Source: Pyrinomonadaceae bacterium (GTDB lineage: Bacteria > Acidobacteriota > Blastocatellia > Pyrinomonadales > Pyrinomonadaceae). Taken from it: 64,000 bases of DNA. The stretch is taken from the NCBI GenBank assembly GCA_049679945.1, contig JBAUGW010000063.1, positions 272 through 64,271 of the forward strand, written 5' to 3'. Numbering within the stretch: position 1 is the first letter of the stretch; each line of letters opens with the position of its first letter. A program made the position numbers and the translations under genes. The notes below the pieces were generated by a model. The model was not told where the DNA came from, made no database searches, and was given only the letters and a program-made list of their open reading frames with translations. Below are positions 5,664 to 55,120 of this stretch, piece by piece.

Positions 5664-6872
5664 ATGAATTTTAAAGACTTAGGCCTTGCGTCCGTACTTA
5701 CGGACAAATGCGCCTCCATGGGTTACACAGAGCCTACACCCATTCAAAAGCAGGCTATTCCGCTTCTCATGAGCGGCCGCGACATGATCGCTTGTGCCGA
5801 GACCGGCACGGGCAAAACTGCAGCATTTTTGCTGCCAATACTAAACAAACTTATCGAAGGGCCAAAAGGTCCCGGCACACGCGTGCTCGTGCTTTCGCCG
5901 ACGCGTGAGCTTGCAAATCAAACCGAGGAGTTTTGTCGCCAGTTTTCGCCGAAGGGAATTACCTGCACGGCGATCATCGGCGGCTCGGGCTACAAGCGAC
6001 AGATGGACAGCCTGCGGCGCGGTGCGAATATTATCATTGCGACGCCCGGCCGGCTGATCGACTTTATGGATCAGGGGCTGATCGACTTTCGAGGCCTGAC
6101 GACACTCGTTTTGGACGAAGCCGACAGAATGCTCGATATGGGCTTTTTGCCGTCGATAAGGCGTATCGCCAGATCGATTCCGGAAAAACGTCAGACGCTC
6201 CTTTTCTCGGCGACAATGTCGGCCCAGATCGAAGGGATAGCACACAAAATGCTGACCAATCCTGAGATGATCGAGGTCAGTCCCCGCGGTAAGGCCGCAC
6301 GGCTCGTTGAGCAAACGGCGTACTCGGTTGCACCGAACTCGAAGATGGTTTTGCTGCTCGATCTGCTCGAAAAAGATGCGCTCAAGCGCGTTCTCGTCTT
6401 CACACGCACAAAACGCGGTGCCGACCGTCTCGCACACGTGCTCGAGAAACGCGAGCACAGCAGCAACCGGATTCACGGCGACCGTTCGCAGGCACAGCGC
6501 GACGCGGCGCTCAATGCGTTTAAGGCCGGCAAGACAAATGTGCTGGTCGCGACCGATGTCGCCGCACGCGGTATCGACATCGATTCGGTCCAGCATGTCA
6601 TCAATTACGACATTCCTGAGGCTCCGGAGGATTACGTTCACCGCATCGGCCGAACGGGTCGCGCCGGCAATAAGGGCAAGGCGATTACAATCTTCACACT
6701 CGCCGAGGAACACTCGATGCGTGCGATCGAACGCCTCACGGGCGAAAAGGTCGAGCGCGTCGTGCATCCTGAATTTGGCGGACAGGCATTTTCTGATAAC
6801 AATTCGTTTAAAAAACAAACGCCCGCGACGAAACGCAACTTTCGCTCGTTCCGCTCGCGGCGTGGACGGTAG
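5664..6872 (+). CDS. DEAD-box ATP-dependent RNA helicase (RhlE-like)
   Basis: Q-motif TPIQ, AETGTGKT, DEAD, SAT, HRIGRTGR, and a basic C-terminal tail. Confidence 0.95.
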   Translation: MNFKDLGLASVLTDKCASMGYTEPTPIQKQAIPLLMSGRDMIACAETGTGKTAAFLLPILNKLIEGPKGPGTRVLVLSPTRELANQTEEFCRQFSPKGITCTAIIGGSGYKRQMDSLRRGANIIIATPGRLIDFMDQGLIDFRGLTTLVLDEADRMLDMGFLPSIRRIARSIPEKRQTLLFSATMSAQIEGIAHKMLTNPEMIEVSPRGKAARLVEQTAYSVAPNSKMVLLLDLLEKDALKRVLVFTRTKRGADRLAHVLEKREHSSNRIHGDRSQAQRDAALNAFKAGKTNVLVATDVAARGIDIDSVQHVINYDIPEAPEDYVHRIGRTGRAGNKGKAITIFTLAEEHSMRAIERLTGEKVERVVHPEFGGQAFSDNNSFKKQTPATKRNFRSFRSRRGR

Positions 6873-6883
6873 AGGTAAAAAAA

Positions 6884-7240
6884 ATGATCAAGAAAAAACC
6901 AGTTTTTGCAGTCGGGGACACCCTCGAAATGATGTGTGCCGCATGCGACACTGAGCAAATGCACCGCATCGACACGGTTACCAAACAAGGCGTTGTAACA
7001 AAAGCCGTTTGCGAGGCGTGCGAGACGGTCAGCACGTTTACACGCGGCGTAAAAACCGCCGTTTCAATGGGCACCGGCAAAAACGCCGCGCCATATGACC
7101 GCATGCGCAAATATAAAAAAGGCCAGGCAATGACCCACGACAAATTTGGCCGTGGCGAGGTCACCGAGGTCATCGAGCCGCGAAAGATCAACGTGCTCTT
7201 CGGCGATCAGGTCAGGCGTCTGATACACGAGCAGGTTTAA
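6884..7240 (+). CDS. zinc-ribbon protein with C-terminal UvrD/PcrA-tail-like (DUF3553-like) domain
   Basis: CAAC...CEAC pairs at the N-terminus. The C-terminal HDKFGRGEVTEVIEPRKINVLFGDQVRRLIH resembles the small beta domain at helicase C-termini. Starts 12 nt after the helicase stop. Confidence 0.55.
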   Translation: MIKKKPVFAVGDTLEMMCAACDTEQMHRIDTVTKQGVVTKAVCEACETVSTFTRGVKTAVSMGTGKNAAPYDRMRKYKKGQAMTHDKFGRGEVTEVIEPRKINVLFGDQVRRLIHEQV

Positions 7241-7265
7241 CTTAACGTAAAATTGGCGCGAGAAA

Positions 7266-7289
7266 GGCGGCCCGTAAGTGCGAGCCGCC
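7266..7289. terminator. weak GC hairpin between convergent genes
   Basis: GGCGGC...GCCGCC stem between the stop at 7240 (+) and the stop at 7327 (-). Confidence 0.35.
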
Positions 7290-7326
7290 CACCCGTAACT
7301 ATTATCTGAAATCTCCGATTGTCGAT

Positions 7327-7683
7327 TTATTTTCGACCGCCGCGGAGGATCAATCCCAGCACCAAGCCGACTGCGGCTGAGATCAGGATCGTTTGACCGG
7401 GCTTTTGACGTGCAAACTCTTTTGCGTCGTCGACGAGCTCTTTCGGGTCCTTATTCGACAGCTCTTTGAATTTATCGCCAGCCTGCGTGAATTTATCATT
7501 TGCAAAATCGCTCGCGCGCTTTGCCGCGTCTTGTACCTTGCCCGCGTATTCCTGTGCTTGCATCTTCAAATTTCCTAAAAACTCATCGTCCGTAACCTTG
7601 TCCGAAAAACCGTCTCCGACCGGCACGAGGCTCTGTTCCAATTCCTTTTCCGCTTTTTTAACTTCTGCTTCAAATTCCGACAT
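7327..7683 (-). CDS. DUF883/ElaB-YqjD family membrane-anchored stress protein
   Basis: 118 aa. Charged helical body with a C-terminal anchor QTILISAAVGLVLGLILRGGRK, which is the typical family layout. Confidence 0.8.
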   Translation of the reverse strand: MSEFEAEVKKAEKELEQSLVPVGDGFSDKVTDDEFLGNLKMQAQEYAGKVQDAAKRASDFANDKFTQAGDKFKELSNKDPKELVDDAKEFARQKPGQTILISAAVGLVLGLILRGGRK

Positions 7684-7818
7684 TATGACACTTCCTCCGA
7701 ATATGTAATTTAATTGCCTAGGCGAATTTTGGCCCGCCCACTTGTGCGACGCTTCTGATGATGACCCGCCGCTGAATGGTTGTAACGAATCAACATTCTT
7801 TTAGTTCATACTTTTTGC

Positions 7819-7939
7819 TAAGTGAACACTTACATTAATAAACCTAATAATATAAGTAAATAGCTCGCTAGTAAAATTGATCTTGACAAATAAAGCTCCA
7901 AACGGCAGAGTCTATTGTTAAAGTTAGTAAGCACTTACT
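7819..7939. promoter_or_regulatory. two related palindromes, candidate TetR operators
   Basis: TAAGTGAACACTTA (7819-7832) and AGTAAGCACTTACT (7926-7939). Both share TAAG..CTTA half-sites. The second ends 3 nt before the ATG at 7943. Confidence 0.35.
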
Positions 7940-7942
7940 TAA

Positions 7943-8608
7943 ATGGTTGGCAAAAAATTGATCAGCGACATTCTAAAATGCGACCCGACAGGCCGTATGA
8001 AGGCGGACGAGCGTCGTGAGCAAATCCTGCACACAGCGATCGAATTGTTTTCTCAGAAAGGTTTTAGCGGGACGACGACAAAAGAGATCGCCCGCGCGGC
8101 GGGCGTGTCCGAGGCGATCATTTTCCGGCATTTCTCAAAGAAGAGTGACATTTATCACGCAATTCTGGACGACAAGGCTCGTCACGACGGGATGAAGTTT
8201 CCATGGGAAGAGGACGCCGAGCTTCTCGACGCGATTCGCCGAAAAGATGATAAAGCCGTTTTTTACAGACTGGCGATCAACGCATTGAACAAACAGCAAT
8301 CTGATGTCGGTTTTCTGCGACTGTTGATGTATTCGGCGCTTGAGGAGCATGAGCTTGCCGAGCGGTTTTTTAGCGAGTTTGTCGCCCGCATCTACGGTTT
8401 TATCGGCGGATATATCGAGGAACGGCAACGCGACGGGGCGATGAGGGTGATGGACCCGCGAATTGCCGTTCGAGCGTTTTTGGGCATGCTGATTCACCAC
8501 TCGCTGAATGTGATCTTGTGGGACAAAAAGCGCTCTCTTCTTAACATTACGAACGAAGAGGCTGCGGAGAATTTTGCCGGAATTTTGCTTCGAGGCATCA
8601 GGGCATAA
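7943..8608 (+). CDS. TetR/AcrR family transcriptional regulator
   Basis: N-terminal HTH (RREQILHTAIELFSQKGFSGTTTKEIARAAGVSEAIIFRHF), located directly upstream of the efflux genes. An alternative start at 7997 is possible. Confidence 0.9.
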   Translation: MVGKKLISDILKCDPTGRMKADERREQILHTAIELFSQKGFSGTTTKEIARAAGVSEAIIFRHFSKKSDIYHAILDDKARHDGMKFPWEEDAELLDAIRRKDDKAVFYRLAINALNKQQSDVGFLRLLMYSALEEHELAERFFSEFVARIYGFIGGYIEERQRDGAMRVMDPRIAVRAFLGMLIHHSLNVILWDKKRSLLNITNEEAAENFAGILLRGIRA

Positions 8609-8610
8609 CG

Positions 8611-9915
8611 ATGACAAAGAGAGACTTAACAAACGCGTTAATTGCAGTTTCGGTTGCGACCGCATCGATCGTTTTGTCGGCCTGCGGTTCAAAGGCCGAG
8701 AGTGCGAATGCGAACGCAAATAATCAGCCGACGATTGTCGATGTCGCGACGACGCAAGCCGTGGTCAGGCAGATACCTACATATTTTGAGGCGACGGGTA
8801 ATCTGGCGAGCGACGCCGCGACCGATGTTGCTCCGGCAATCGGCGGAAAGATCGTTGAGGTAAATTTTGACGTCGGCAGCTATGTGAACAAGGGCAGCGT
8901 GCTTTTGCGACTCGATTCCCGCGACGCACAGATTAGATTAGAGACGGCTCAGGCACAAGTTCAGCAGCAGCAAAAAGCGCTTGGCCAGGCAGTCGCGGCT
9001 TTGCGACAGGCGCAGGCGAGGCTCGGCGTTCGCGACGGCGAGACGTTTGATATCGACAAGTTCTCGCAGGTGAAATCGGTGAGAGCAAATCTCGAACTTG
9101 CGGAGAAGGAGCTTATTCGAACCGAGCGGCTTTACAACACGGGCGATGTTTCAAAATCTGCTCTCGATCAGCGACGTGCGCAGCGGGATGCACTACTCGG
9201 ACAACTGGACGAGGCTCGTTCTAACGCCGCCGTTGCCATAAAAGCAATCAACTCTGCCGAGGCGCAGGTTGCATCTGCGCGAGCCGCAATCACAACTGCT
9301 CAAACGCAAGTCGATCAGGCACGCAAATCATTGAATGACACGGCGGTGCTCGCGCCCATCAGTGGTTATATCTCGGAACGCACGGCAGATCTCGGTGAGT
9401 TCATAAGCCCAAGCGTGCCAAATGCAAAGATCGCGACCATAATTCGCACTTCAAGCCTGCGTTTGAAGATCGATGTTCCAGAAGCTTCGATCGGCAAGGT
9501 CGCGACCGGTCAAAGCATAAGTTTGCAAACGAGCGCATATCCCGACCGCAATTTTACCGGAACCGTCGTCCGCATTTTGCCGAGCCTCAATCAACAGGCA
9601 CGCACATTAACAGTCGAAGCCGAAGTTCCAAACGGCGACGGTTTGCTAAAACCAGGACAATTTGCGACGGTTCGCATTACGCAATCAAAACCTGAGAATG
9701 CAGTGATGATACCGGCGTCGGCCGTAAAAGCCGAGGGCGATGTCAGCAAGGTTTACGTAGTTAAAGACGGCGCTGCGCGCGAGCGACTCGTCCAACTCGG
9801 TTTGCTCGAGGGTGAAAGTATCCAAGTAAAACAAGGGCTAAACGAGGGCGAGCTGATAGCGACGAATAATCTTGCGGAGCTGTACGACGGCGTACTAGTT
9901 CGCGTTGCAAACTAA
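8611..9915 (+). CDS. efflux RND periplasmic adaptor (MFP/HlyD family)
   Basis: Lipoprotein-like signal (LSAC), a long coiled-coil hairpin, and beta-barrel motifs (VLAPISGYISER). Confidence 0.9.
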   Translation: MTKRDLTNALIAVSVATASIVLSACGSKAESANANANNQPTIVDVATTQAVVRQIPTYFEATGNLASDAATDVAPAIGGKIVEVNFDVGSYVNKGSVLLRLDSRDAQIRLETAQAQVQQQQKALGQAVAALRQAQARLGVRDGETFDIDKFSQVKSVRANLELAEKELIRTERLYNTGDVSKSALDQRRAQRDALLGQLDEARSNAAVAIKAINSAEAQVASARAAITTAQTQVDQARKSLNDTAVLAPISGYISERTADLGEFISPSVPNAKIATIIRTSSLRLKIDVPEASIGKVATGQSISLQTSAYPDRNFTGTVVRILPSLNQQARTLTVEAEVPNGDGLLKPGQFATVRITQSKPENAVMIPASAVKAEGDVSKVYVVKDGAARERLVQLGLLEGESIQVKQGLNEGELIATNNLAELYDGVLVRVAN

Positions 9916-10373
9916 GTTCCAAGTTGCAAGTTCCAAGTTCCAAGGCATGGGTTTATGGCGAGATTTGAACGATTTGAAGAGATAGAAGGGTGGAAACTGG
10001 CGCGGCAAGTGACGAACCAAGTGTACGAGCTCAGTTCTGCTCCTGAATTCAGCCGAGATTTTGCGCTCGTAAATCAAATGCGCCGTGCATCAGTTTCAAT
10101 TATGTCGAATATTGCCGAAGGTTTCGAACGAGATGGCAACAAAGAATTTCTTCAATTTCTTTCGATAGCAAAGGGTTCGTGCGGAGAAGTGCGTTCCCAG
10201 CTATACGTTGCACTCGACAGAAAATACTTAGACGATAGACGATTTCATTCGGTCAGCTCGTTATTGATCGAAACATCAAAAGTGCTCTCAGGTCTAATGA
10301 AATATCTGAAACAGTCTGAAGAACGAGGGCGAAAATTCAAATAACTTGAAACATGGAACTTGAAACCTGGAAC
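9916..10373 (+). mobile_element. hairpin-bounded cassette carrying a four-helix-bundle gene
   Basis: Inverted heptamer-repeat arms at 9916-9945 and 10345-10373 (25/29 complementary by hand). They bracket the CDS at 9955-10344 and fill the MFP-RND gap exactly. Confidence 0.55.
9955..10344 (+). CDS. four helix bundle protein (23S rRNA intervening-sequence protein family)
   Basis: 129 aa. WKLARQVTNQVYEL...QMRRASVSIMSNIAEGFERDGNKEFLQFLSIAKGSCGEVRSQLYVA matches the family consensus as I recall it. Confidence 0.9.
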   Translation: MARFERFEEIEGWKLARQVTNQVYELSSAPEFSRDFALVNQMRRASVSIMSNIAEGFERDGNKEFLQFLSIAKGSCGEVRSQLYVALDRKYLDDRRFHSVSSLLIETSKVLSGLMKYLKQSEERGRKFK

Positions 10374-10382
10374 TAGATAGTT

Positions 10383-13300
10383 ATGCAGTGGTTAGCCGAA
10401 GTTTGTGTAAAGCGTCCTGTGTTTGCGACGATGCTGATCTTGTCGCTGGTCGTAGTCGGCGCGTTTTCGTTTCTGAGTCTCGGCGTCGATCTGTTTCCAA
10501 AGATCGACTTTCCGACGATCACAGTCACGGTCGTGAATCCCGGAGCGTCGCCGCAGGAGATCGAGACCGAGATCACCGAAAAGATCGAGGAGGCCGTCAA
10601 CACGATCAGCGGCATCGACGAATTGCGTTCGACATCGATCGAAGGCATCTCGCAAGTGTTTGTGCAGTTCGTGCTTGAGAAGGATGTTAATGTCGCCGCA
10701 CAAGAGGTCGAGAATCGCGTTCAGACCGTAATTCCAACCTTGCCGCAGACCGCTAAACAGCCGACTGTTCAAAAACTCGACACCGATGTCGCGCCGATCT
10801 TGCGTGTTTCGATTTCGGCGCCACGCTCGCTTCGCGAAGTCACTGAGACCGCAAAAAATAAAGTCAAGGAACGCATCGAGTCGGTAAACGGCGTCGGCCA
10901 GATCACGATCATCGGCGGCGTCGACCGGCAGATAAATGTGTGGGTCGATCCCGACAAGATGCGCTCCTATAACGTGACGCCGGCTGAGATCTCGGGCGCG
11001 CTTGCCGTGCAGAACATGGAGTTTCCGAGCGGAAGACTCGATGAAGGCCAAAAAGAAACGAGCGTTCGCACCATCGGGAAAATTCAAAAGGCTGAGGAAT
11101 TTAACGACCTCATCGTCGCAAATCGCGGCGGTTATCAAGTAAAAGTAAAAGATCTCGGCTATGTCGAGGACGGAGCCGAAGAGGCGCGTTCTGAAGCTCG
11201 TTTGAACGGACAGCCGGCCGTGACGCTAATCGTCTCAAAACAATCGGGACAAAATACCGTCGCCGTCGCACGCGAGATAAAAGAGCGACTCAAAGAGATC
11301 GAGCCGACTATGCCAAAAGATTTTCAGATGCGCATTATCGGCGACAACTCGATCTTTATCGAGAACAGTTTGCGCAATATCGAGGAGCACTTGATCGTCG
11401 GCTCAATCCTTGCGGCGATAGTGGTTTTTTTCTTCCTGTGGAATTTCCGGGCAACGTTCATCGCCGCAATAGCGATCCCAACCTCAATTATTTCAACATT
11501 TGCCCTGATGTATGCGATGGGTTACACGCTCAACTCGATCACGATGTTGTCGCTCACGCTGATGGTCGGCATCGTGATCGACGACGCGATCGTCGTACTC
11601 GAGAACATCTACCGCTTTGTCGAAGAGAAGGGCATGAACCCGTTTCAAGCCGCGATCGAAGGCACGCGTGAGATCGGCCTTGCCGTGCTGGCGACAACGC
11701 TTTCGCTGATGGCGGTGTTCGTTCCGATTGGTTTTATGCAGGGCATCGTCGGCAGATTTATGTCGTCGTTCGGGCTGACGGCGTCGTTCGCGGTCGCGGT
11801 TTCGCTGATCGTTTCGTTCACGCTGACGCCGATGCTCGCCGCGAGGCTTATTAAGAAGTCCAAAGTCCAAGGTCCAAAGTCCAAAGCCGTTAACGACGAA
11901 ATCCACGGAGACGGAATGTTATCGGAGGACGAGAAACCCAGGACTTTGGACATTGGCCATGAGACTTCGGACTCGCATTATACCGGCTGGTTTAGACGTG
12001 TCGACGGTGTTTACGCGTGGCTGCTGCGCTTTTCAATGTCGCATCGCTGGGTGATCGTCACGCTTTGTGCTCTTGTCTTTTTGAGCATTGTGCCGCTGTT
12101 TATGTTCGTCGGCAAAAACTTTTTGCCGGTCGATGACCAATCGCAATTCGAGATATCGGTTCGAGCGCCCGAGGGTTCGAGTCTCGGACAAACTTCGCAG
12201 ATCTTTGAGCAGATCGCGTCCGAGATTCGCAAGATTCGCGGCGTAACCGACACGCTCGCAACGGTCGGCGGCGGCCAGCAGCAAGTCGTCAACGCCGGCA
12301 CGATTTACGTCAAATTGTCCGACATAAAGACGCGCCCAAAATCGCAGGAGCTAATGATGGATGATGCGCGTGAGCTGTTAAAACAGTTTCCACCGGAGCT
12401 GCGAACCGGCGTTCAGCAGGTGCAGGCGTTCTCGGGCGGCGGTTTTCGCAACGCGAACGTGCAGTTCCTGATTGCCGGACCTGACATTGCAAAGTTAACG
12501 GAATACTCGGAAAAGATCGCCGCGAAAATGAAGACGGTTCCCGACGCCGTCGATGTCGATTCAACACTCATCGGCGGCAAGCCCGAGGTGCAGCTCGAAG
12601 TCGATCGTGACACGGCGGCCGATCTCGGCGTTCGTGTCGGCGATGTTTCACAGGCGCTCAACACTCTGATCGCGGGCCAGCAAGCTACGACATTCAACCA
12701 GGGAACCGACCAATACGAAGTGCGAGTTCGCGCGATCAATACATATCGCACGAGTATCGAGGGATTGAAACGCGTGATTGTTCCATCGACAAAACTCGGT
12801 TGGGTGACGCTCGACCGTGTCGTAAAAGCAAAGAGCGGCACCGGCCCGAGCGCCATCGACCGCACAAATCGCCAACGCCAAGTCACGCTGCTTGCCAACA
12901 CGCGTCCCGGCGGTTCGGCGGCGAGCATTACGGCCGCGATCGACAGTTACATCAAAGAGCTAAATCTTCCCACAGGTTATCGCACCGGTTACGTCGGCCA
13001 GTCGAAGGAGATGGGCAAGGCTGGATTTTATTTTCTGCTCGCGTTCGCGCTGTCATTCATCTTTATGTACATCGTGCTCGCCGCGCAATTCGAGTCGTTC
13101 ATTCACCCGGTGACGATCTTGCTGACGCTGCCGCTGTCGGTGCCGTTTGGGATTTTGAGCCTTTTGGTTGCGGGACAAACCGTGAACATCTTTTCCGGTC
13201 TCGGCCTGCTGCTGCTCTTCGGCGTCGTTAAGAAAAACGCGATCTTGCAGATCGATCATACGAACACGCTTCGATCACGCGGAATGTCGCGTTACGACGC

Positions 13301-13616
13301 GATCATCCAGGCAAATCGCGACCGTCTGCGCCCCATCCTTATGACTACGATCGCTCTCGTCGCCGGAATGATACCGCTCGTCGTAGGCTCGGGCGCCGGA
13401 GCCGGAACAAACCGTTCGATCGGAACGCTTGTCGTCGGCGGACAAACTTTGTGTTTACTCCTCACACTGCTGGCCGTGCCGGTTTTCTATTCGATATTCG
13501 ACGATCTCGCCGAGCTGCGTTTGTTTAGATACGTCAACCGTTTTGCAACCTCGCTCTTTGGCGGGTTAAAGCGACGCGTGGCAACGGCGACAAACTCAAT
13601 ATTCAGTAAACAATAA
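10383..13616 (+). CDS. efflux RND transporter permease (AcrB/HAE family)
   Basis: 1077 aa. Twelve-TM layout with two large periplasmic loops and a conserved N-terminus ([20 protein letters not shown]). Confidence 0.95.
11858..11972. repeat. heptamer-repeat inverted arms (GTCCAAA units) inside the RND CDS
   Basis: Left arm GTCCAAAGTCCAAGGTCCAAAGTCCAAAG (11858-11886). Right arm GGACTTTGGACATTGGCCATGAGACTTCGGAC (11941-11972). 54-nt spacer. Read in frame as SKVQGPKSK...[11 protein letters not shown]. Confidence 0.65.
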
Positions 13617-13627
13617 TCGCGTTTTAT

Positions 13628-15337
13628 ATGTTTCGCTTTTTTTCTATCATCGCTCTCACTGTGCTCGCTTTGGCGGCAGGCATGCGGGCGCAAACGCCGA
13701 TGCCCTCGCCGGAAAATGTGCCGGGTGTGCCCGATATCGCGCCGAATTATAGATCCGACGAACGCGGTTTGCCTGAATTAATGCGCGTCGGCGTCGATGT
13801 AACGCAGCAAAAAGCCTTGACCCTGAATGACGCGATAACGCTCGCGCTTGAGAACAACCGCGACATCGAAGTCACGCGAAAGACGGCGACGATCGCCGAG
13901 TTCGATCTGCGCGCGGCGCGCGGCTTTTATCAGCCACGGCTTTCGGGACAAACTTACTATGACCGCTCGACGACGCCGAACGTCAGCATCTTCAGCAGCA
14001 ATCAAAAGACGACAGTCGGCACGCTGCTCGGTAACGTCGCGCTTAATGCGCCGCTGACGAACAACGGAACCGTGCTGTCCGGCGGATTTAACAACCAACG
14101 CGTGACGACCGATAATCCAATCTCGATACTTAGTCCGCAACTAAATTCGAGTCTTAGCTTTTCTGTGACGCAGCCGTTGTTTCGGGGTCGACGAATCGAT
14201 CAGCCACGACGCACGATCGAGATCGCGAAGAAAAATATCGAGCTTACCGAAACACAATTTCGTCAGCGAACAATCGAAACTGTTGCGACTGTCGAGAAAG
14301 CTTATTGGGATCTGACATACGCGCTGCGCAATTTACAGGTCCAGCGTGACGCTGTTCGCGACGCGCGGCGGCAGCTCGAACACAATCGGCGATTGGTTAA
14401 CGAAGGCCAACTCGCCCCGATCGACATCGTCGCGGCCGAGACGCAAGTTGCAAACTTCGAGCAGTCGGTTTACGACGCGCTCAACACGGTCAATCTCGCT
14501 GAGAATGTTCTGAAAAATCTGATCTCGCCAAATCGCTCAAACGAAATTTGGAACGTCGCGCTCATGCCGGTCGAACCTGTCGAGGTCGCGATCCCGAATT
14601 CGACATTGGGCGAAGCCGTCGAACTTGCGCTCGACAATCGCCCCGAGCTTGAACTCAACAAAAAGCAAAAAGACATCAACTCAATTGACCGACGTTTCTA
14701 TCGCGATCAACAGCGGCCGCAGATTGATTTTTTTGCGAGCTACTCCTCAGCGGGAATCGGCGGCAGTCTTAATCCGAATTTCAGCAGCCCGTTTTGCGCG
14801 AACAGTCCCACGCCAGCGCTTTGCCAAGCTGGTGTGCAGACTCAACTACAGACATTTCTGTCTCAAATCGGAGGTAGCACTACGGCCGTAGCCGATATTT
14901 TTGTGAGAAAGTATCCCGTATTCCGTTTTGGTGTTAATTTCAATCTGCCGCTGTTTGGCGACAAAACTGCTTCGGCGCAATATGGCAAGTCCCTTGTCGA
15001 GGCCGAGCGGCTCGATGCTCAACGTGAGCAGATCGAGCAAGGGATTCAGGTCGAGGTTCGCAATGCGCTGCAATCGATACGCACCGCCGAAGCGCGGCTT
15101 CGCGCCGCCGCGATCGTTCGCGAAAATTCAATAAAGCAATACGAGTCCGAACAACGCAAACTCGACGAAGGCCAGTCGGACGTTTACCGCGTGCTTGAGC
15201 GCCAAACCGCGCTCACCATCGCGCGCAGCAACGAACTCCGCGCACGAATCGAATTGAACAAAGCCGTCACTGAGCTGACGCGTGCGACCGGCAACACGTT
15301 AAAAGCAAACAACATCGAGCCAAAGGTAAAGAAATGA
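13628..15337 (+). CDS. TolC family outer-membrane efflux protein
   Basis: Signal peptide followed by a duplicated OEP repeat architecture (LTLNDAITLALENNRDIE...). Confidence 0.9.
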   Translation: MFRFFSIIALTVLALAAGMRAQTPMPSPENVPGVPDIAPNYRSDERGLPELMRVGVDVTQQKALTLNDAITLALENNRDIEVTRKTATIAEFDLRAARGFYQPRLSGQTYYDRSTTPNVSIFSSNQKTTVGTLLGNVALNAPLTNNGTVLSGGFNNQRVTTDNPISILSPQLNSSLSFSVTQPLFRGRRIDQPRRTIEIAKKNIELTETQFRQRTIETVATVEKAYWDLTYALRNLQVQRDAVRDARRQLEHNRRLVNEGQLAPIDIVAAETQVANFEQSVYDALNTVNLAENVLKNLISPNRSNEIWNVALMPVEPVEVAIPNSTLGEAVELALDNRPELELNKKQKDINSIDRRFYRDQQRPQIDFFASYSSAGIGGSLNPNFSSPFCANSPTPALCQAGVQTQLQTFLSQIGGSTTAVADIFVRKYPVFRFGVNFNLPLFGDKTASAQYGKSLVEAERLDAQREQIEQGIQVEVRNALQSIRTAEARLRAAAIVRENSIKQYESEQRKLDEGQSDVYRVLERQTALTIARSNELRARIELNKAVTELTRATGNTLKANNIEPKVKK

Positions 15338-16317
15338 AAGCGGTTTACATAACCGAATTTGACGGCACGAGCATAGAGCTGCGCGACGTTCCCGATCTTG
15401 CGAAACCGACGGTTGAGCAAGTACTGGTCCGCGTTCAGGTTGCTGGTTTGAATCGCGCTGATCTGCTGCAAGCTCGTGGGCTCTATCCGCCGCCGGCCGG
15501 TTACTCGCCGAACGTTCCCGGTCTCGAGTTCGCGGGCGAGATCGCGGCTGTTGGCGACGATGTAAAAAATTTACAGGCAGGTGAGCGTGTATTCGGAATA
15601 ACTGCGGGCGAGGCGCAGGCTGAGTATTTGTTGATCGATGCAAGTTTGTGCGCCAAGATTCCCGACAATTTGTCTTTCGCACAAGCTGCTGCAATTCCCG
15701 AGGCGTTCATCACGGCGCACGACGCGATAATTACGCAAGGTGATCTGAAAAGCGGCGAGACATTACTGATACATGCCGTCGGTTCTGGCGTCGGTCTTGC
15801 AGCATTGCAGATAGCAAAATCAAAAGACGTAACCGTCGTCGGCACATCGCGAACCGCGGACAAGTTAGCGCGCTGTGACGAGTTTGGACTTGATGTCGGA
15901 ATTTTAACTGATAAAGAAATTCAGTTTGCAGAACAGATCGCCGACATCACCGACGGCAAAGGTGCAGACGTTATACTCGACCTTGTCGGTGCGGCACACT
16001 TTGAACAAAATGTTGCGAGTCTCGCACAAAAAGGAAGATTGATGTTGGTTGGTCTGACATCGGGTCGCACCGCTGAATTCAACCTCGGCATCGCTCTGCA
16101 AAAACGCGCTCACATCATCGGCACTGTCTTCCGTTCTAGATCGACGGAAGAAAAAGCTACGGCGACGCGCAGATTTGCCGACGAAATCGTTCCGCTGATC
16201 GCAGCCGGCATCATTCGTCCAAACCTCGATCGTGTTTTCGCAGCCGCAACCGTGGTCGATGCTCACAAATATCTTGAGTCTAACGAGAGTTTTGGAAAGG
16301 TCGTGTTGGAGTTTTAG
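15334..16317 (+). CDS. NAD(P)H:quinone oxidoreductase (zinc-type ADH superfamily, PIG3-like)
   Basis: MDR fold with the nucleotide-binding motif LIHAVGSGVGLAALQIAK. Confidence 0.9.
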   Translation: MKAVYITEFDGTSIELRDVPDLAKPTVEQVLVRVQVAGLNRADLLQARGLYPPPAGYSPNVPGLEFAGEIAAVGDDVKNLQAGERVFGITAGEAQAEYLLIDASLCAKIPDNLSFAQAAAIPEAFITAHDAIITQGDLKSGETLLIHAVGSGVGLAALQIAKSKDVTVVGTSRTADKLARCDEFGLDVGILTDKEIQFAEQIADITDGKGADVILDLVGAAHFEQNVASLAQKGRLMLVGLTSGRTAEFNLGIALQKRAHIIGTVFRSRSTEEKATATRRFADEIVPLIAAGIIRPNLDRVFAAATVVDAHKYLESNESFGKVVLEF

Positions 16318-16634: not shown

Positions 16635-16709
16635 ACAAACGTCGAGCGCAGCCAAACTTTATCATAGCCCCAAAAGTGATGTAAATACTTTTTTGTTTCG
16701 ACAGATTTA

Positions 16710-16875
16710 GCCACGAATGCACGAATGAATCGGAGTCAGTTCAAATTTTGTGGTGCTTTGCGTGCTTTGCGGCTTCGCGTGATAACAATGTGGTTTCACG
16801 CAAAGACGCTAAGATCGCAAAGTCTCGAACAGCATTAACGCCACATGCTCTGCTTTTTATTCGTGCATTCGTGGC
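16710..16875. repeat. nested empty double hairpin (CACGAAT arms enclosing GCAAAG arms)
   Basis: Outer arms are GCCACGAATGCACGAATGAA (16710-16729) and TTATTCGTGCATTCGTGGC (16857-16875). Inner arms are 16756-16782 and 16796-16822 (about 21/27 complementary). No ORF inside. Confidence 0.8.
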
Positions 16876-16913
16876 AAATTTCTTTAGCGACTTGGTAAAA
16901 TAAAATTCCGTTT

Positions 16914-18004: not shown

Positions 18005-18045
18005 CTTTGCGTGAGATTTCCCGCAAAGACGCAAAGACCGCAAAG
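18005..18045. repeat. GCAAAG-class repeat/hairpin
   Basis: CTTTGCG...CGCAAAG stem followed by ACGCAAAGACCGCAAAG tandem units, just after the stop at 17984. Confidence 0.55.
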
Positions 18046-18080
18046 CAAATGAATTCAAGTTTCGAGCATCATACTGCCGA

Positions 18081-19214
18081 ATGTTATTTAAGTCTGTATC
18101 TATAAAGACATTATTTTGTCTCGGTTTAATGGCCACCTCAGCGATTCTTGCTAGTGCGCAGAGTGGTCGCATTACTGCGACGCCGACCGCGACGCCGCCG
18201 GACGAAACTCTGCGAATCGACACCGAGGAGATCAAATTAAATGTCCTCGCATTTGACGAACGCGGCGAATTTTTTCGCGACGTGACTGCAAACGACCTCG
18301 TCATTTCAGAGAACAATATTCTGCATCCGCCGACGAGTGTGCGTCGCATTGCTGCAAATGTTTTGATAGTGATGGACACGGGCGGCGAACTCCGCAGCGT
18401 AAAAACTCTGGACCAAACACGAAAGGTAGCACGCGGCGTAGTTGAGAGTTTACGTCCGGGCGACTCGTTTTCCCTCATTAGTTACGCCGACAAGGCTGAG
18501 GTCGTCGGCGAGTGGACAAGCGACAAACAGCAAGCGCTCGCCGCGATAAAGCGGACGAATTTTGGCCGCCGCTCGGTCTTTGTCGATGCACTGAAACTCG
18601 CGACCGTTTTTTTGGAACGCTCAGGGCTCGATAACAAACACCTTGTCTTAATAACCGACGGCACCGACAGTCTCGGACGCTCGTCGCAGAAATTCGACGC
18701 GTTGCAGCGGCTGATGGCGACAGACGTCAGCGTTCATGTGATCAGTTACACCTCGATGGAAGCGGTTGCGATTGAGCCGCGAACCAAACGGACTTCGACG
18801 ACTCCGCCGCCTAAAGCTCTTCCGCCGGAGGTCGTCGATCAATTGCCTAACGACGTTAAGATCGCTGCCAAACGCCCAAAGATCGGCCCGACCATCAACA
18901 TGGACCGCACGCTGATCAAACGCATGAAAGCTCGCAAGGCCGAACTCGAAGCCGCACAAGAACAGCTCGAAAAGCTCGCCGAGAACACGAACGGCGAATT
19001 CATCCTGCCCGAAACCGTTGACGAAATGGTCGAGAAAGCCTCGCTTGTCGCACGCATGATCGACTCGTCATACGTCGTCACCTATATGCCAAAAATTTCC
19101 GTCGCCGAAACCCGAGGGCTAGCCGAGCGTAACATCGAGGTCACCTCAAAACGCCCCGGCCTCATCGTGCAGTCTCGACGCAAGCTGCTTATTCAGGCAG
19201 AAAAGAAGAATTAG
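18081..19214 (+). CDS. secreted VWA domain-containing protein
   Basis: Signal peptide, and a vWA core with a MIDAS-like VLIVMDTGGE...LISYADKAEVV...LVLITDGTDS. Confidence 0.85.
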   Translation: MLFKSVSIKTLFCLGLMATSAILASAQSGRITATPTATPPDETLRIDTEEIKLNVLAFDERGEFFRDVTANDLVISENNILHPPTSVRRIAANVLIVMDTGGELRSVKTLDQTRKVARGVVESLRPGDSFSLISYADKAEVVGEWTSDKQQALAAIKRTNFGRRSVFVDALKLATVFLERSGLDNKHLVLITDGTDSLGRSSQKFDALQRLMATDVSVHVISYTSMEAVAIEPRTKRTSTTPPPKALPPEVVDQLPNDVKIAAKRPKIGPTINMDRTLIKRMKARKAELEAAQEQLEKLAENTNGEFILPETVDEMVEKASLVARMIDSSYVVTYMPKISVAETRGLAERNIEVTSKRPGLIVQSRRKLLIQAEKKN

Positions 19215-19286
19215 CCACAGATGAACACGGATAAACTCAGATCAAGTTATTGATCTTATCTGTTTCCATCTGTGTTTATCTGTGGC
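19214..19286. repeat. CACAGAT-class hairpin between convergent genes
   Basis: GCCACAGATGAACACGGATAA ... TTATCTGT..CATCTGTGTTTATCTGTGGC. Likely a bidirectional terminator. Confidence 0.7.
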
Positions 19287-19294
19287 AAATATTC

Positions 19295-19787: not shown

Positions 19788-20195
19788 CGCCACAGAGAAC
19801 ACAGAGGTCACAGAGAAATGCGCTTAACTCCTTCGCGGAGCATCTTTGCGCCAAAGTTGATTAAGAGCCCACGTTTAAGACCGGTTGCTTTTAGATAAGA
19901 CAGAATCTGGGCGGTTGAGACGTCGGGGAGTTTACTGAGTGATTTGATCTCAACTATCACTTCTTCTTCAACGAGTATATCGATCCGCTGGCCTTTAATA
20001 ACTTTGTCTTTGTAAATGACATCTATCTCAAGCTGTCTCGAATAACGAATACCTCGCAAATCGAATTCATGACAAAGAGCTTCTTCATAAATCGACTCGA
20101 GCAAACCCGGACCGAGTGTTCAGTGAACTTCGATAGCTGCACCAATGATCTTCTGCGTAAGTACATCGTTTTCCTTCTCTGAGTTCTCTGTGGCG
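19788..20195 (-). mobile_element. hairpin-bounded cassette carrying a GxxExxY-family gene remnant
   Basis: Arms are CGCCACAGAGAACACAGAGGTCACAGAG (19788-19815) and CTCTGAGTTCTCTGTGGCG (20177-20195). 18/19 complementary over the shared part. Confidence 0.55.
19808..20173 (-). pseudogene. GxxExxY protein (PD-(D/E)XK-like) with in-frame TGA
   Basis: The track ORF starts at an internal TTG (LESIYEEALCHEF...). Reading upstream in the same frame gives ENDVLTQKIIGAAIEVH-TGA(20120-20122)-TLGPG, which is the family N-terminus. No in-frame ATG was found. Confidence 0.7.
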
Positions 20196-30339: not shown

Positions 30340-30561
30340 GTCGCCAACGGCGACGGACATTAAAGCCTAGGGTAGAGTGAGCATCGCGAACGGCACCCTA
30401 GGACTGGTTGGAAGATTGATTCCGACGCTGAAGGCGTCGAACAATTTGCGGCGTGGTTGTTCTTCCCCTTCAGGGAAGGCAATTTGGTCGGGCATTTTCC
30501 TAGGGTTCCAATCGCGTCGCTCTTTGCACCCTAGGCTTTAATGTTTGTCGCCGTTGGCGAC
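30340..30561. repeat. MITE-like element with 34-bp terminal inverted repeats
   Basis: GTCGCCAACGGCGACGGACATTAAAGCCTAGGGT (30340-30373) against the reverse complement of 30528-30561 is 32/34 identical. Internal hairpins CGACGCTGAAGGCGTCG and CTTCCCCTTCAGGGAAG. No ORF inside. Confidence 0.8.
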
Positions 30562-33678: not shown

Positions 33679-33693
33679 ATTGTTAGGAGTTTA

Positions 33694-33777
33694 AACGCAA
33701 AGTCGCAAAGTCGCCAAGACGCAAAGAAACCTAAATAACAAATCTTTGCGGCTTATGCATCTTTGCGACTTTGCGTT
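33694..33777. repeat. GCAAAG-class hairpin, perfect 17-bp arms
   Basis: AACGCAAAGTCGCAAAG (33694-33710) and CTTTGCGACTTTGCGTT (33761-33777). Further GCAAAG/CTTTGC pairs lie inside. The right arm overlaps the radical SAM gene stop codon by 2 nt. Confidence 0.8.
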
Positions 33778-34825
33778 AAAAAAGTCTTTGCTGAAGTGCA
33801 ACCGGTGCAGTTTCGATCTCGACCGATTTTTCGCGCTGATTAAAACCAAGCCGCTCGGCGTGAAAATTAAAGAGTTTTACTGTCATGTCCCACTGCTCGG
33901 TTTTGCCAAGCCCTCGTTCCTTGTACGTGCGATGACGAAGCGTACCGTTGCGCTCGCGTTTTATCGTGTTGATGATCTTCGCCACGCGTGTCGGCGGCAG
34001 GCGTTCGTGCATTTTTTGGACAAAATACTCCTCGATCGAATCGGTATCGAGATGCAGCATCGACATAAACGCACGCGTCGCCCCGCAATCTTTTGCCCTC
34101 TCTAACAGACCCGGAATGTCTGATTCGTTATATCCGGGAATTACGGGCGCAACACCGATGCCGACGGGAATACCGGCATCGGCAACCGCTTTCATGGCGC
34201 GAAAACGCGCTTCGGGGACAGGTGTGTATGGTTCGAAGGGATTTGATTTTTCCTTTGTGAGAAACGGCAGCGAGAAAAATACGGTGACCTTGTTCAGCTT
34301 TTTTAGAATATCGATGTCGCGCGTCACAAGCGGCGATTTTGTGATGACGGCAACCGGCACGCGAAACTCGGCGCAGACTTCGAGGCATTGGCGCGTGAGT
34401 TTGTATTCGGCTTCGAGCGCGATGTACGGGTCGGTCGCGAAAGAAAAATCGAGATGCGGCATTTTGTCACGGCACTTTTTTAACTCAGCGCGCAACAATT
34501 GCGGAGCGTTTGGTTTTACCACGATCTTTGTCTCAAAATCGGTTCCGGCGCCGTAGCCGAGATATTCGTGATACTGCCGAGCAAAACAATATGTACAGCC
34601 GTGAACGCAGCCGCGATAGCAGTTAACCGTGTAACGCCAGCCACCTTCCCAGTCGGACGAGAATGCTTTAGTAATAATTTTTTTTGTCGCGGTCTCTTCA
34701 AAGATCTCGAGCTTTGTCGGCGGCGGCTCGCCGATGTACTCGGCTGAATATTTGTTGTAGGGATTTGGCGGGTTTTTGATGTGTCGCACAGATGAAACGA
34801 TAGTCCATCGTCGGGCAAAGTGCAA
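33776..34825 (-). CDS. radical SAM protein (PA0069/SplB-like family)
   Basis: CVHGCTYC (CxxxCxxC) cluster. Start uncertain: TTG at 34825, with a GTG 12 codons downstream also possible. Confidence 0.85.
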   Translation of the reverse strand: MHFARRWTIVSSVRHIKNPPNPYNKYSAEYIGEPPPTKLEIFEETATKKIITKAFSSDWEGGWRYTVNCYRGCVHGCTYCFARQYHEYLGYGAGTDFETKIVVKPNAPQLLRAELKKCRDKMPHLDFSFATDPYIALEAEYKLTRQCLEVCAEFRVPVAVITKSPLVTRDIDILKKLNKVTVFFSLPFLTKEKSNPFEPYTPVPEARFRAMKAVADAGIPVGIGVAPVIPGYNESDIPGLLERAKDCGATRAFMSMLHLDTDSIEEYFVQKMHERLPPTRVAKIINTIKRERNGTLRHRTYKERGLGKTEQWDMTVKLFNFHAERLGFNQREKSVEIETAPVALQQRLF

Positions 34826-36038: not shown

Positions 36039-37217
36039 CTATTTGCCGCTCGTAATCAGCTTTGCAATAGTTTGCAGCTGCATGTTCGACGTGCCTTCGT
36101 AGATGGAGCCGATCTTCGAATCGCGCCAGTATTTTTCGACCGGATAATCTTTGACGTAGCCGTAACCGCCGTAGAGTTCGATTGCTGTTGACGAAACGCG
36201 TTCGGCGCAGCGAGACGAAAAGAGTTTTGCGATGGCGGCTTCTTTCAAAAACGATTTTCCCGCGTCTTTTAGACGAGCGGCGTTGTATACGAGCAGTCGC
36301 GTCGCCTCGATCTCGACGGCCATCTCGGCGAGTTGGAATTGTACGGCCTGAAAACCGTTGAGCGCCGAGCCAAACTGCTCACGCTCAGCCGTGTATTTCA
36401 GAGCGGCTTCGTACGCGCCTTGCGCGATGCCGAGCATTTGTGCCGCGATACCGATACGGCCTTCGTTGAGAGTTTCGATCGAGACCTTGTAGCCTTTACC
36501 GATGTCACCGAGGACGTTTTCTTTCGGGACTTTGCAGTTATCGAGAATGAGTTCAGTTGTTGAAGAAGCTCGTATTCCGAGCTTGTCTTCTTTTTTGCCG
36601 ACGCTAAATCCTTCGAAACTTTTTTCCACGATGAACGCTGTGATGCCTTTGTAACCGGCTTCGGGATCGATGGTCGCAAAGACCAAAAAGATCTCGGCCT
36701 CGTTCCCGTTTGTGATCCAGAGCTTTTGACCGGTGAGTTCCCAAGTGTCGCCCTTATCGACCGCGCGTGTTTTTAACGCAAAAGCATCCGAGCCCGAACC
36801 GGCTTCGCTCAGCGCATACGCACCGACCTTACCGCTCGCCATTTGTGTCAGATACTTTTTCTTCTGATCGTCGTTTGCCCAACGCATAAACGCGTTTGTC
36901 ACGAGTGTGTTGTGAACATCGACAAAGACGGAAACTGAGGCATCGACGCGGGCCAGCTCTTCGATTGCGAGAATAGCGTTGAAGATCGTCGAGCCTGCGC
37001 CGCCATATTCCTCAGGCGACTCGATCGCCATCAAACCCAGATCAAAGCACTGTTTGATAAGGTCAGGGTCGAGTTTCGAGGCGTGCTCCATCTGCTCGAC
37101 CTTTGGGCGAACCTCGCCCTCGGCAAACTCGCGCACGGACGCGCGAAACATTTCTTCATCTTCGGATAAAACGGTCAGACCGGCGTTTGTCATAACGGTT
37201 CCTGTTGCTGTTGTCAT
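36039..37217 (-). CDS. acyl-CoA dehydrogenase (short/branched-chain type)
   Basis: 392 aa with ACAD N/M/C domains. The conserved C-terminus reads YEGTSNMQLQTIAK. Confidence 0.95.
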   Translation of the reverse strand: MTTATGTVMTNAGLTVLSEDEEMFRASVREFAEGEVRPKVEQMEHASKLDPDLIKQCFDLGLMAIESPEEYGGAGSTIFNAILAIEELARVDASVSVFVDVHNTLVTNAFMRWANDDQKKKYLTQMASGKVGAYALSEAGSGSDAFALKTRAVDKGDTWELTGQKLWITNGNEAEIFLVFATIDPEAGYKGITAFIVEKSFEGFSVGKKEDKLGIRASSTTELILDNCKVPKENVLGDIGKGYKVSIETLNEGRIGIAAQMLGIAQGAYEAALKYTAEREQFGSALNGFQAVQFQLAEMAVEIEATRLLVYNAARLKDAGKSFLKEAAIAKLFSSRCAERVSSTAIELYGGYGYVKDYPVEKYWRDSKIGSIYEGTSNMQLQTIAKLITSGK

Positions 37218-37243
37218 AAAGTAAACTGAGTGTCAGTAGTATC

Positions 37244-37319
37244 GTGTCCGTAGCCCCCACGTAAGTAAGGGCTATCGTGGCTCCACAGGAGCCCTTACTT
37301 ACGTGCGGGCTACAGACAC
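37244..37319. repeat. 30-bp-stem hairpin in a divergent promoter region
   Basis: GTGTCCGTAGCCCCCACGTAAGTAAGGGCT (37244-37273) against the reverse complement of 37290-37319 is 28/30. 16-nt loop. Confidence 0.8.
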
Positions 37320-37357
37320 TACATTTTAGACAGCATATCGGCATAAGGCAACGTAAA

Positions 37358-38410
37358 GTGAATCCACCAATCGACCCCGCAGACACGCATTCTCGAAAAT
37401 ACAGCAGGCTGAAGTTGCTGGCCGTTTTGCTGACGCTTTTGGGGATTGGGTTGTTCGGGTATTTTATCTACGCCGTCGGTTTTAGTGAGATCGTCGATGG
37501 CGTTGTGCGATTTGGTGTCGCGGGTTTTGCAGTAATTCTTGTGCTTTACTTTCTGCGACTCATCACGCGAGCGCAGACGTGGAAGATGTGCGTTCACGAG
37601 CCCGACGAATTGCGATTGCGAGATACTGTTCCCGCCGTCATCATCGGCGAGGCATTGAGCAGCACAATACCGCTCGGCATCCTTGTAAGCGGCACGTCGA
37701 AGGCGATCGCTGTGAGAAAAAAAATTTCGCTCGTCGCGGGCCTTTCGTCCGTCGCCACCGAAAATCTTTTTTACAGCTTAATCACGAGTTTGTTTTTGAT
37801 CGCAGGTGCGGCGGTGATGCTGCGAACTTACGCGGTTGACGAGAGTTTGATCGTGACGGTAAATATTCTCATCGTCTCCGTCGCGCTCCTGCTGCTGCTG
37901 GGAATTTTCATGGTCGTGCGTCAGTGGCATTTTGCGAGCGTGACCTGCAACTGGCTTTTCGAAAAAGGTTTTCTGACGCGGCTGCTCGAAAACGGGCGTG
38001 GCGAAGTGCGTCGATTCGAGGATTTTATTTACGGCTTTTATCGAAAGTATCCGCGACGCTTTTTGCCGATTTGTTTTTTCGAGTTTATTTATCACGTGCT
38101 CGGCATCGCCGAAGTTTGGTACATCCTCAGCCGCATCACTGACGGCTCGCCCAGTTTGCTCACCGCATTTTTACTCGAATCAGTCAGCCGGCTCGTAACA
38201 ATAATTTTCAAACTCGTGCCTTTTGTGATCGGCGTTGACGAGGCGGGCGCGCAGTTCGTTGGCGAAACGGTCGCACTTGGTGCCGGTGTCGCCGTCACGC
38301 TCGCGATCATCCGCAAAGGGCGGATCCTGTTCTGGACCGCGATCGGTGTCGTGCTAATTATCAAGCGTGGTTTCTCAATAAAAGAAATTTCCGCCGCGCT
38401 CGATGAATAA
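37358..38410 (+). CDS. lysylphosphatidylglycerol-synthase-TM-region (UPF0104/flippase-like) family membrane protein
   Basis: About 350 aa and multi-TM. GTG at 37358 is preferred because the track's ATG at 37277 lies inside the hairpin. The family call comes from overall topology and the C-terminal motif, so it is moderate. Confidence 0.6.
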   Translation: MNPPIDPADTHSRKYSRLKLLAVLLTLLGIGLFGYFIYAVGFSEIVDGVVRFGVAGFAVILVLYFLRLITRAQTWKMCVHEPDELRLRDTVPAVIIGEALSSTIPLGILVSGTSKAIAVRKKISLVAGLSSVATENLFYSLITSLFLIAGAAVMLRTYAVDESLIVTVNILIVSVALLLLLGIFMVVRQWHFASVTCNWLFEKGFLTRLLENGRGEVRRFEDFIYGFYRKYPRRFLPICFFEFIYHVLGIAEVWYILSRITDGSPSLLTAFLLESVSRLVTIIFKLVPFVIGVDEAGAQFVGETVALGAGVAVTLAIIRKGRILFWTAIGVVLIIKRGFSIKEISAALDE

Positions 38411-53802: not shown

Positions 53803-53816
53803 GACAAGACCCGTTG

Positions 53817-53879
53817 GCCACGAATGAACACGAATAGCACGAATAAGATCAAATCGTGTTATTCGTGTCCATCCGTGGC
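53817..53879. repeat. CACGAAT-class hairpin between convergent genes
   Basis: GCCACGAATGAACACGAATAGCA against the reverse complement of TGTTATTCGTGTCCATCCGTGGC is about 20/23. Likely a bidirectional terminator. Confidence 0.75.
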
Positions 53880-55075: not shown

Positions 55076-55120
55076 GTTTCTTTTGGCTTTCTCCGTGATC
55101 TCTGTGCCTCTGTGGTGAAT
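54992..55120. repeat. CACAGAG-class hairpin enclosing the start codon of the glycosidase gene
   Basis: Perfect 21-bp arms ATTCACCACAGAGGCACAGAG (54992-55012) and CTCTGTGCCTCTGTGGTGAAT (55100-55120), with partial extension. The loop contains the ATG at 55073-55075. Confidence 0.85.

Follow-up and report, generated by a model that had tools for sequence, protein, structure and literature searches.

A four-helix-bundle gene within complementary tandem-heptamer arms at the adaptor–pump junction of a Pyrinomonadaceae efflux operon

In this work we analyse a stretch of 64,000 nucleotides (nt) from a Pyrinomonadaceae bacterium (contig JBAUGW010000063.1 of assembly GCA_049679945.1), referred to below as the window, with a focus on a 458-nt cassette that lies between two genes of an efflux operon. 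A profile search of the neighbouring genes gives the operon order as a TetR-family regulator, an HlyD-type membrane-fusion protein (MFP) adaptor, an AcrB-type resistance-nodulation-division (RND) pump and an outer-membrane factor. The cassette sits at the adaptor–pump junction, and comprises a gene for a four-helix-bundle protein of family PF05635 flanked on either side by an arm of tandem heptamers, the two arms being complementary to each other (Table 1). An initial annotation of the window had placed the adaptor stop at 9915, the open reading frame (ORF) at 9955–10344 and the pump ATG at 10383, and these coordinates were borne out. It had also described the insert as AT-richer than the operon, in agreement with a G+C content of 43.4%, compared to 53.9% in the adaptor gene and 54.5% in the pump gene (i.e. 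about 54% in the flanking genes) and 52.3% in the window overall.

The arms were recovered by a repeat finder as a 30-nt inverted pair, 9915–9944 and 10345–10374, with 87% complementarity, and a recount by hand gave the same 25 complementary positions out of 29 that were noted initially. Tandem Repeats Finder delimits the left array at 9914–9944, with 4.4 copies of AAGTTCC, and the right array at 10343–10374, with 2.3 copies of a 14-mer that equals two heptamers. The left arm had been said to begin immediately past the stop codon of the adaptor; the array itself is confirmed, but it already takes in the AA of that codon. Both arms qualify as intergenic tandem heptamers, defined here as at least three head-to-tail 7-nt units between co-directional genes. 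The predicted arm duplex has an energy of −33.5 kcal/mol, compared to −10.6 ± 3.3 in 2000 shuffles (z = −7). The inverted-repeat score of 20 was reached by 0/2000 shuffles and by none of about 3000 random pairs taken from the window at the same spacing, for which the highest score was 11.5. In the minimum-free-energy fold of 9900–10390 the two arms are paired, which gives the predicted stable stem on which the initial annotation had made its proposal depend, and the tandem units would permit this pairing in several registers. Within the 64-kb window GTTCCAA occurs in tandem at this locus only; the other window hairpins are built from different units. A translational switch based on local hairpins was also considered; the left arm is barely more complementary to the 5′ end of the gene (5.36) than to the ORF interior (4.95), and at the 3′ end the right arm shows no such excess, so this idea was dropped.

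On the coding strand we found no promoter-like and no terminator-like site within the cassette, from which we infer that the gene is co-transcribed with the operon. The sole promoter-like site inside the cassette is weak (9/12 match) and lies on the opposite strand, at 10127–10099. There was no intrinsic terminator at the arms, the right arm being followed by TAGATAGTTATG, and no clear Shine-Dalgarno sequence can be read in the 10-nt spacer before the start codon. A read-through fusion with the adaptor, with which the gene is in frame in the window, was dismissed because the frame varies among orthologues.

Table 1. Coordinates of the cassette and of the host operon genes around it, in window positions.
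Feature	Position	Strand	Remarks
TetR-family regulator, first gene of host operon	7943–8608	+	PF00440, E = 2.5e-17; its place upstream of the adaptor is kept in orthologous loci
MFP adaptor gene	8611–9915	+	HlyD_D23, E = 6e-30; TAA at 9913–9915, at the stem base
Left (5′) arm	9914–9944	+	4.4 tandem heptamers: AAGTTCC AAGTTGC AAGTTCC AAGTTCC AAG
Spacer between left arm and start codon of four-helix-bundle gene, 10 nt	9945–9954	+	Read from sequence
Four-helix-bundle gene, 129 aa, PF05635 / TIGR02436, cargo of the loop	9955–10344	+	Family and fold matches
Right (3′) arm	10345–10374	+	CTTGAAAC ATGGAAC TTGAAAC CTGGAAC T; begins directly after the cargo stop codon
Remainder of intercistronic gap, right arm to pump ATG, 8 nt	10375–10382	+	Read from sequence
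RND pump gene (AcrB-type)	10383–13616	+	ACR_tran, E = 8e-284

The encoded protein matches PF05635 over the entire model (positions 1–106/106; E = 1e-34, 119.4 bits compared to a cut-off of 33.8) and TIGR02436 (E = 5.6e-34, 116.6 bits, cut-off 24). Its AlphaFold model has a pLDDT of 95 and consists of four long helices. The top Foldseek matches to this predicted model are XCC0516 (2gsc) and BT_0352 (2rld), with root-mean-square deviations of 1.3–2.3 and TM-scores of 0.77–0.83 (query-normalised) or 0.89–0.94 (target-normalised). These are homologues in sequence as well as in fold, with a profile E-value of 2.7e-26 to 2gsc, and both are pentameric four-helix-bundle proteins whose entry titles (conserved hypothetical/unknown function) are silent on genomic architecture. 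The retroelement protein Avd (4dwl, 8ub7) is also among the best structural matches, sharing the fold with a TM-score to the predicted model of about 0.7 and only about 11–15% identity. Avd has been deposited in complex with the reverse transcriptase of a retroelement ribonucleoprotein (8ub7), which indicates that it handles nucleic acid. A diversity-generating retroelement has an adjacent reverse transcriptase, whereas none was present among the eight neighbour genes scanned here (5664–16317), although no search covered template or variable repeats; the scanned genes gave a DEAD-box helicase, a weak DUF883 match, the TetR regulator, the adaptor, the pump, the outer-membrane protein (OMP) and a dehydrogenase. 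No Rfam family, rRNA included, matched the cassette or any other part of the window, and the four-helix-bundle protein had no match in a defence-system library.

The ratio of nonsynonymous to synonymous substitution rates (dN/dS) is 0.15 relative to an 87%-identical orthologue in L178 (L numbers denote comparison loci throughout), which indicates that the protein is under purifying selection and, for that reason, functional here. The PF05635 family comprises 17,447 clusters at 50% identity and, to our knowledge, is without known function outside retroelements.

The initial annotation had proposed comparing related operons for presence and absence of the insert. Querying with the pump protein gave 80 orthologous TetR-adaptor-pump-OMP loci. 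They all come from Acidobacteriota, for the most part from Pyrinomonadaceae, have pumps 60–86% identical to that of the window, and vary at exactly this junction. A full cassette is found in L001, L005, L007, L011, L014, L020, L025 and L080, with a decaying cargo gene in L001 (stop at codon 3) and L007 (frameshift). Many loci have a gene-less heptamer hairpin at the junction instead, that of L037 being made of the GTTTCAA/GTTCCAA units of the window. In L008 and L023 there is a right arm alone, of the same unit type as the cassette of the sister taxon (L007 and L080, respectively), and this points to deletion from a full cassette. A bare gap of 12–13 nt separates adaptor and pump in L003, L004, L031 and L066. 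Other cargo, without heptamer arms, was seen at the junction in L015 (5494–6000, a 163-aa ORF) and L024 (5327–6000, ORFs of 149 and 75 aa). The next junction of the operon, pump–OMP, measures 11 nt in the window, and in relatives it can hold 1–3 extra small genes (L001 8816–9238; L016 9428–10311; L025 4310–5644; L027 9407–10884), encoding two membrane proteins, of about 140 and of 155 aa, and one further protein of 143 aa.

In a neighbour-joining tree of the pump, the four-helix-bundle gene is patchily distributed within the clade that includes the window. The nearest relative of each junction copy is another junction copy, and five of six close database homologues (69–87% identical) sit at an adaptor–pump junction; in the contig of the sixth, an assembly gap takes the expected place of the adaptor, and a pump fragment comes after the gene. 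The junction orthologue group extends to relatives with a pump only 70% identical, and gene and pump pairwise identities show only moderate correlation (r = 0.48). Because the junction copies are mutual closest relatives and arm remnants persist, the comparison favours one early acquisition in this Pyrinomonadaceae clade, followed by vertical inheritance and roughly a dozen losses, a number that is approximate since the trees are neighbour-joining only. By this comparison the insertion at the adaptor–pump junction is not recent. Orthologous cassettes have a G+C content of 36–50%, deeply diverged relatives included, so low G+C was rejected as a mark of recent transfer, and given the age of the cassette it is an intrinsic property. 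The overall interpretation offered initially stands in part: that of an insertion module is supported, and the processing of its stem is putative.

The arms themselves are far from constant. Within this single junction lineage the repeat unit may be GTTCCAA, GTTCAAG, GGTTTCT, GTCTCAA or AGTCCAA, yet the arms of one cassette match each other: mean complementarity is 20.8 between own arms, compared to 13.6 for arms swapped between cassettes, whose array copy numbers differ (permutation p = 1e-4). Predicted folds pair the arms in 14/15 orthologous cassettes, with 18–47 long-range pairs. In 13 of those 14, the outermost pair begins within or just 3′ of the adaptor stop codon (segment positions 1–5; in the remaining one, L011, it is at position 32), and its partner lies a few nt upstream of the pump ATG. 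We also see that on the protein tree arm types sort by clade, with the 9-mer GTTCAAACC, GTGATGA, AGTCCAA, GTTTCAA and G-rich cyanobacterial units each marking their own, while the flanking genes are mostly unrelated within each arm-type clade. As the arms stay complementary while changing, and as arm type follows the phylogeny of the gene, gene and arms behave as one evolutionary unit. There is also a polarity to the arms, in that G exceeds C in the 5′ arm of 44/55 cassettes (p = 9e-6).

How often such genes are flanked by inverted arms was a question raised by the initial annotation, and the association proves to be frequent. In a profile scan of 1.04 Mb of the relatives' loci, tandem-heptamer arms flank 10/10 family members found, one of which is an unrelated paralogue at another place in L012. 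In a metagenomic set of homologues 47–65% identical (80 loci, 70 with usable flanks), inverted arms were detected for 43/70, compared to 4/180 other genes on the same contigs (Fisher p = 4e-25), i.e. bracketing is about 28 times commoner around the PF05635 gene than around its neighbours. The arm period among these 43 is 7 in 30 cases, 8 in 6 and 9 in 6. The gene is co-oriented with both same-direction neighbours in 36/39 cases, and over 36 independent cassettes a median of 1 nt separates the left arm from the stop codon upstream of it, and a median of 11 nt separates the right arm from the following start codon. Arms accompany 10/12 plasmid copies (Riemerella and 11 cyanobacterial plasmids), and of the other two the copy in L097 has only the right array, beside a transposase gene. 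Plasmid contexts include cas10-cmr3, cas6-cas4 and an antisense position between ribonucleotide reductase subunit genes. The orthologues of XCC0516 in Xanthomonas have the same cassette layout, but with a GGGAATC-type unit and a different host, since they occupy the accB-accC junction with arms that reach the accC ATG. From these comparisons, the occurrence of a gene within a heptamer stem between operon genes in four phyla suggests that the insertion module is widespread and has for the most part been overlooked. The initial description of a 'self-contained insertion module' is thus well supported by presence and absence at the junction, by arm co-evolution, by the arm type characteristic of each gene clade and by the four-phylum layout. 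Separately, the four-helix-bundle cassettes within CRISPR-cas operons (L089, L092 and L093, all from cyanobacterial plasmids) may account for the listing of the family as cas-associated in earlier metagenomic surveys.

Hairpins of a similar build are common in the window without any gene inside them. Those at 16707–16878 (with a second hairpin nested inside), 18005–18047 and 19210–19290 have arms of tandem 7–10-mers and nearly fill their intergenic gaps, and more gap-filling tandem-repeat hairpins lie at 33690–33781, 53814–53882 and 54987–55125. Exact gap-filling is therefore a trait of the hairpin class and not of this locus alone; the cassette does fill its gap exactly, as had been stated, but this is the norm for tandem-repeat hairpins. 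A second class of hairpins, which includes 19791–19817 and the gap-filling set, has 8–10-mer arms with the cores CACAGAG/CACAGAT, CACGAAT and CGCAAAG, and these cores recur in L013, L016, L026, L038 and L057. The period of about 9–10 and the conserved core suggest that hairpins of this second class may be protein-binding arrays. A tandem-heptamer hairpin also occurs in frame within the RND pump gene (11855–11973; AGTCCAA ×4 and its complement, 57 nt apart), in the cytoplasmic loop after the sixth transmembrane segment; this loop is highly variable in length among orthologues, and holds heptamer arrays in L021 and L051 too. Two other inverted repeats in the window differ in kind. The repeat at 30340–30561 is not built of tandem units; its 64-nt arms are separated by 94 nt and show 83% complementarity. 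It lies in a 345-nt gap between co-directional minus-strand genes, has no Rfam match and may be a different small element. The near-palindrome at 37231–37332 (50-nt arms, 78% complementary, 2 nt between them) is at the boundary of the divergent genes 36039–37217 (−) and 37277–38410 (+).

Since about 1990 the intervening sequences (IVSs) of rRNA have stood as a curiosity that lacks an explanation. In the 23S IVSs of Coxiella and Leptospira, as here, a long terminal stem closes the loop that carries an S23p/PF05635 gene, and the link to these elements that was drawn initially is not only real but closer than was stated. The Coxiella burnetii IVS is a 428–444-nt element, similar in size to the 458-nt cassette, with an ORF of the same family (PMC4990558). 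Its 5′ arm, too, is formed by tandem heptamers, namely 3–4 GACAGAT units whose copy number varies among strains, and RNase III was found by experiment to cut at the first of these repeats (PMC4990558). Further points of likeness are a gene in sense orientation relative to the host transcript, a patchy distribution and a tendency to decay (PMC4990558). There are also clear differences. The host of an IVS is 23S rRNA, whereas the cassette lies in a protein-coding operon and outside any 23S rRNA gene, although it has terminal inverted repeats that form a long predicted stem. The Coxiella ORF is reported to be decaying and probably untranslated (PMC4990558), unlike the gene studied here with its dN/dS of 0.15. 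Cleavage by RNase III is experimental for the Coxiella rRNA element, and here would be expected only by inference.

Tandem heptamers in intergenic positions are known from other bacteria, including GGGAATC in Xanthomonas, GGGGA(C/T)T and the short tandemly repeated repetitive (STRR) sequences of Nostoc/Calothrix, and TAACTGA in Beggiatoaceae (PMC4692102, PMC4679880). According to Rehm et al., GGGAATC occurs mostly as four units between aligned ORFs, past stop codons and on the sense strand; X. campestris has 70 inverted pairs, and most repeats are transcribed (PMC4692102). An excess of heptamer repeats in bacterial genomes was noted there without explanation (PMC4692102). The repeats of the Xanthomonas/Nostoc type are likewise tandem heptamers and often inverted pairs, whereas in the window the pair encloses a gene and the unit is not G-rich. 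Both reports treat heptamer repeats as G-quadruplex or regulatory motifs, and in neither of them did a text search turn up any reference to S23 or four-helix-bundle genes (PMC4692102, PMC4679880). In the open-access literature we found nothing beyond the Coxiella IVS that links PF05635 genes to flanking heptamer arms, and an earlier description elsewhere is possible.

Taking these data together, we think it probable that the locus is a resident copy of a widespread IVS-type cassette, in which a PF05635 gene is looped in a stem of about 30 bp formed by complementary tandem-heptamer arms. It appears to be an ordinary-looking member of a large, cross-phylum and largely undescribed class of IVS-type elements in mRNA operons. 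Without a promoter of its own, the cassette would be transcribed within the operon mRNA, where the arms would pair and loop out the 390-nt gene. This would bring the adaptor stop to within about 10 nt of the pump start, as in cassette-free operons. By analogy with the Coxiella 23S IVS, the long duplex is a plausible substrate for RNase III, and a cut there would free the cargo mRNA and split the operon into its two halves. The halves of a cut rRNA remain together in the ribosome, whereas those of a cut mRNA would part. If the stem were left uncut, a ribosome terminating at the adaptor stop could melt the stem base and expose the pump start region, and so keep translational coupling; cut or uncut, the stem would make the insertion tolerable inside the operon. 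That the stem acts in RNA and is processed is thus a conditional step of this model. The arms turn over by change of the repeat unit and yet remain mutually complementary, and slippage may lengthen the tandem arrays until coding sequence is met, which would explain the exact gap-filling.

Several observations weigh against this cassette model, and they give some substance to other explanations. The arms are not exclusive to the PF05635 gene, since gene-less heptamer hairpins are common: by a count from the pair list, 1.04 Mb of relatives' DNA holds roughly 45 of them, compared to 10 that bear a gene. In the sister clade of about 40 genomes the gene is absent from the junction and yet nearly all have gene-less hairpins there, so that the hairpin may predate the gene at this site. 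The heptamer arms in L027 (9423–9459 and 9927–9958) enclose a gene for a 155-aa protein and not PF05635 cargo, which means that arms can enclose other cargo, and about 39% of the metagenomic homologues have no detectable arms. In L092 (Pseudanabaena galeata plasmid, 1384–1970, cas6-cas4) the arrays are direct, not inverted, with AAAAGCT repeated >14 times on the upstream side of the gene and AAAAGCC about 10 times on the downstream side. The gene-less hairpins, the state of the sister clade and the arms in L027, together with the many gap-filling hairpins in the window, would suit a generic intergenic hairpin found genome-wide in Pyrinomonadaceae, stabilising or processing mRNA, into which the gene landed or whose loop it targets. 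Repetitive extragenic palindromic (REP) elements, REPINs and miniature transposable elements with inverted repeats (MITEs) are short hairpin elements in intergenic gaps, operons included, and are thought to affect mRNA stability. REP and REPIN copies are near-identical and have a dedicated transposase, however, whereas the arms seen here are of tandem short units that differ from locus to locus. A REP-like hairpin that acquired a gene by chance is also hard to square with related genes having related arm types in unrelated contexts, with the association recurring in Cyanobacteria, Bacteroidota and Gammaproteobacteria, with the 28-fold enrichment of arms over neighbouring genes, or with the right arms of L008 and L023 that match their sister cassettes and imply deletion. 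We therefore regard it as unlikely.

An element mobile at the DNA level is a further alternative. The arms would then be terminal inverted repeats, or DNA hairpins/cruciforms, that are recognised when the element is excised or inserted; the pentamer of the four-helix-bundle protein would serve its mobility or maintenance, and hairpins without a gene would be its MITE-like non-autonomous derivatives. Here the arms travelling with the gene and the many unrelated contexts would be expected, and the position of the fold relative Avd in a reverse-transcriptase complex (8ub7) is suggestive; a mobile IVS with mobility supplied by its ORF was the older proposal of Ralph and McClelland, as cited in PMC4990558. 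Mismatches in the arms point in the same direction. Those of G:U type number 69 and those of A:C type 56, which is not significant (p = 0.28), so the asymmetry was not accepted as proving RNA-level selection, and pairing could equally be maintained in DNA or by conversion between arms. The ends recognised by transposases are normally conserved, however, whereas these arms are hypervariable, and one copy has stayed fixed at a single site across deep divergence. The cassette has no nuclease or recombinase domain and encodes no mobility enzyme, and no target-site duplication was seen at it; the missing mobility enzyme and target-site duplication count against the cassette model, too. Co-orientation in 36/39 cases and the G > C polarity are also a better fit to a role at the transcript level, and overall we hold a DNA-level element to be quite improbable. 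It could be argued instead that the protein is an accessory subunit or regulator of the efflux system, conserved for its work with the pump, given its long residence at the junction, the purifying selection on it and its likely co-transcription with the pump genes. Yet the gene was lost about a dozen times from operons that remained intact, only 2/80 of the metagenomic homologues are at an adaptor–pump junction, and other copies reside at accB-accC, cas10-cmr3 and cas6-cas4, or antisense between the ribonucleotide reductase subunit genes; the lack of a match in the defence-system library was also counted against an efflux role, for which we see very little chance.

A bolder version of the cassette model can be put forward tentatively, and we rate it as doubtful. 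PF05635 cassettes might be pan-bacterial hairpin-enclosed genes that colonise transcribed spacers, whether operon gaps or rRNA helices, with a pentamer that acts on its own heptamer arrays at about one subunit per repeat, as arrays typically have four to five repeats. Gene-less hairpins would then be relics or products of such cassettes, and these may include the cyanobacterial STRRs, the inverted GGGAATC pairs of Xanthomonas and the hairpins of Pyrinomonadaceae. If true, this would explain the origin of rRNA IVSs, the function of PF05635 and the bacterial excess of heptamer repeats together.

In short, this locus and the comparisons made around it tie together the PF05635 family, the IVSs of rRNA and the excess of heptamer repeats. 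Coxiella has the unit of a gene within a heptamer stem in its rRNA, and elsewhere the unit lies between operon genes, namely those for efflux here, accBC in Xanthomonas and the cas genes in cyanobacteria; the accBC copy offers a genetically tractable case inside an essential operon. If the stem does insulate the host transcript, it would represent a general way for genes to live in operons without breaking them, and a natural design for insulated insertion.

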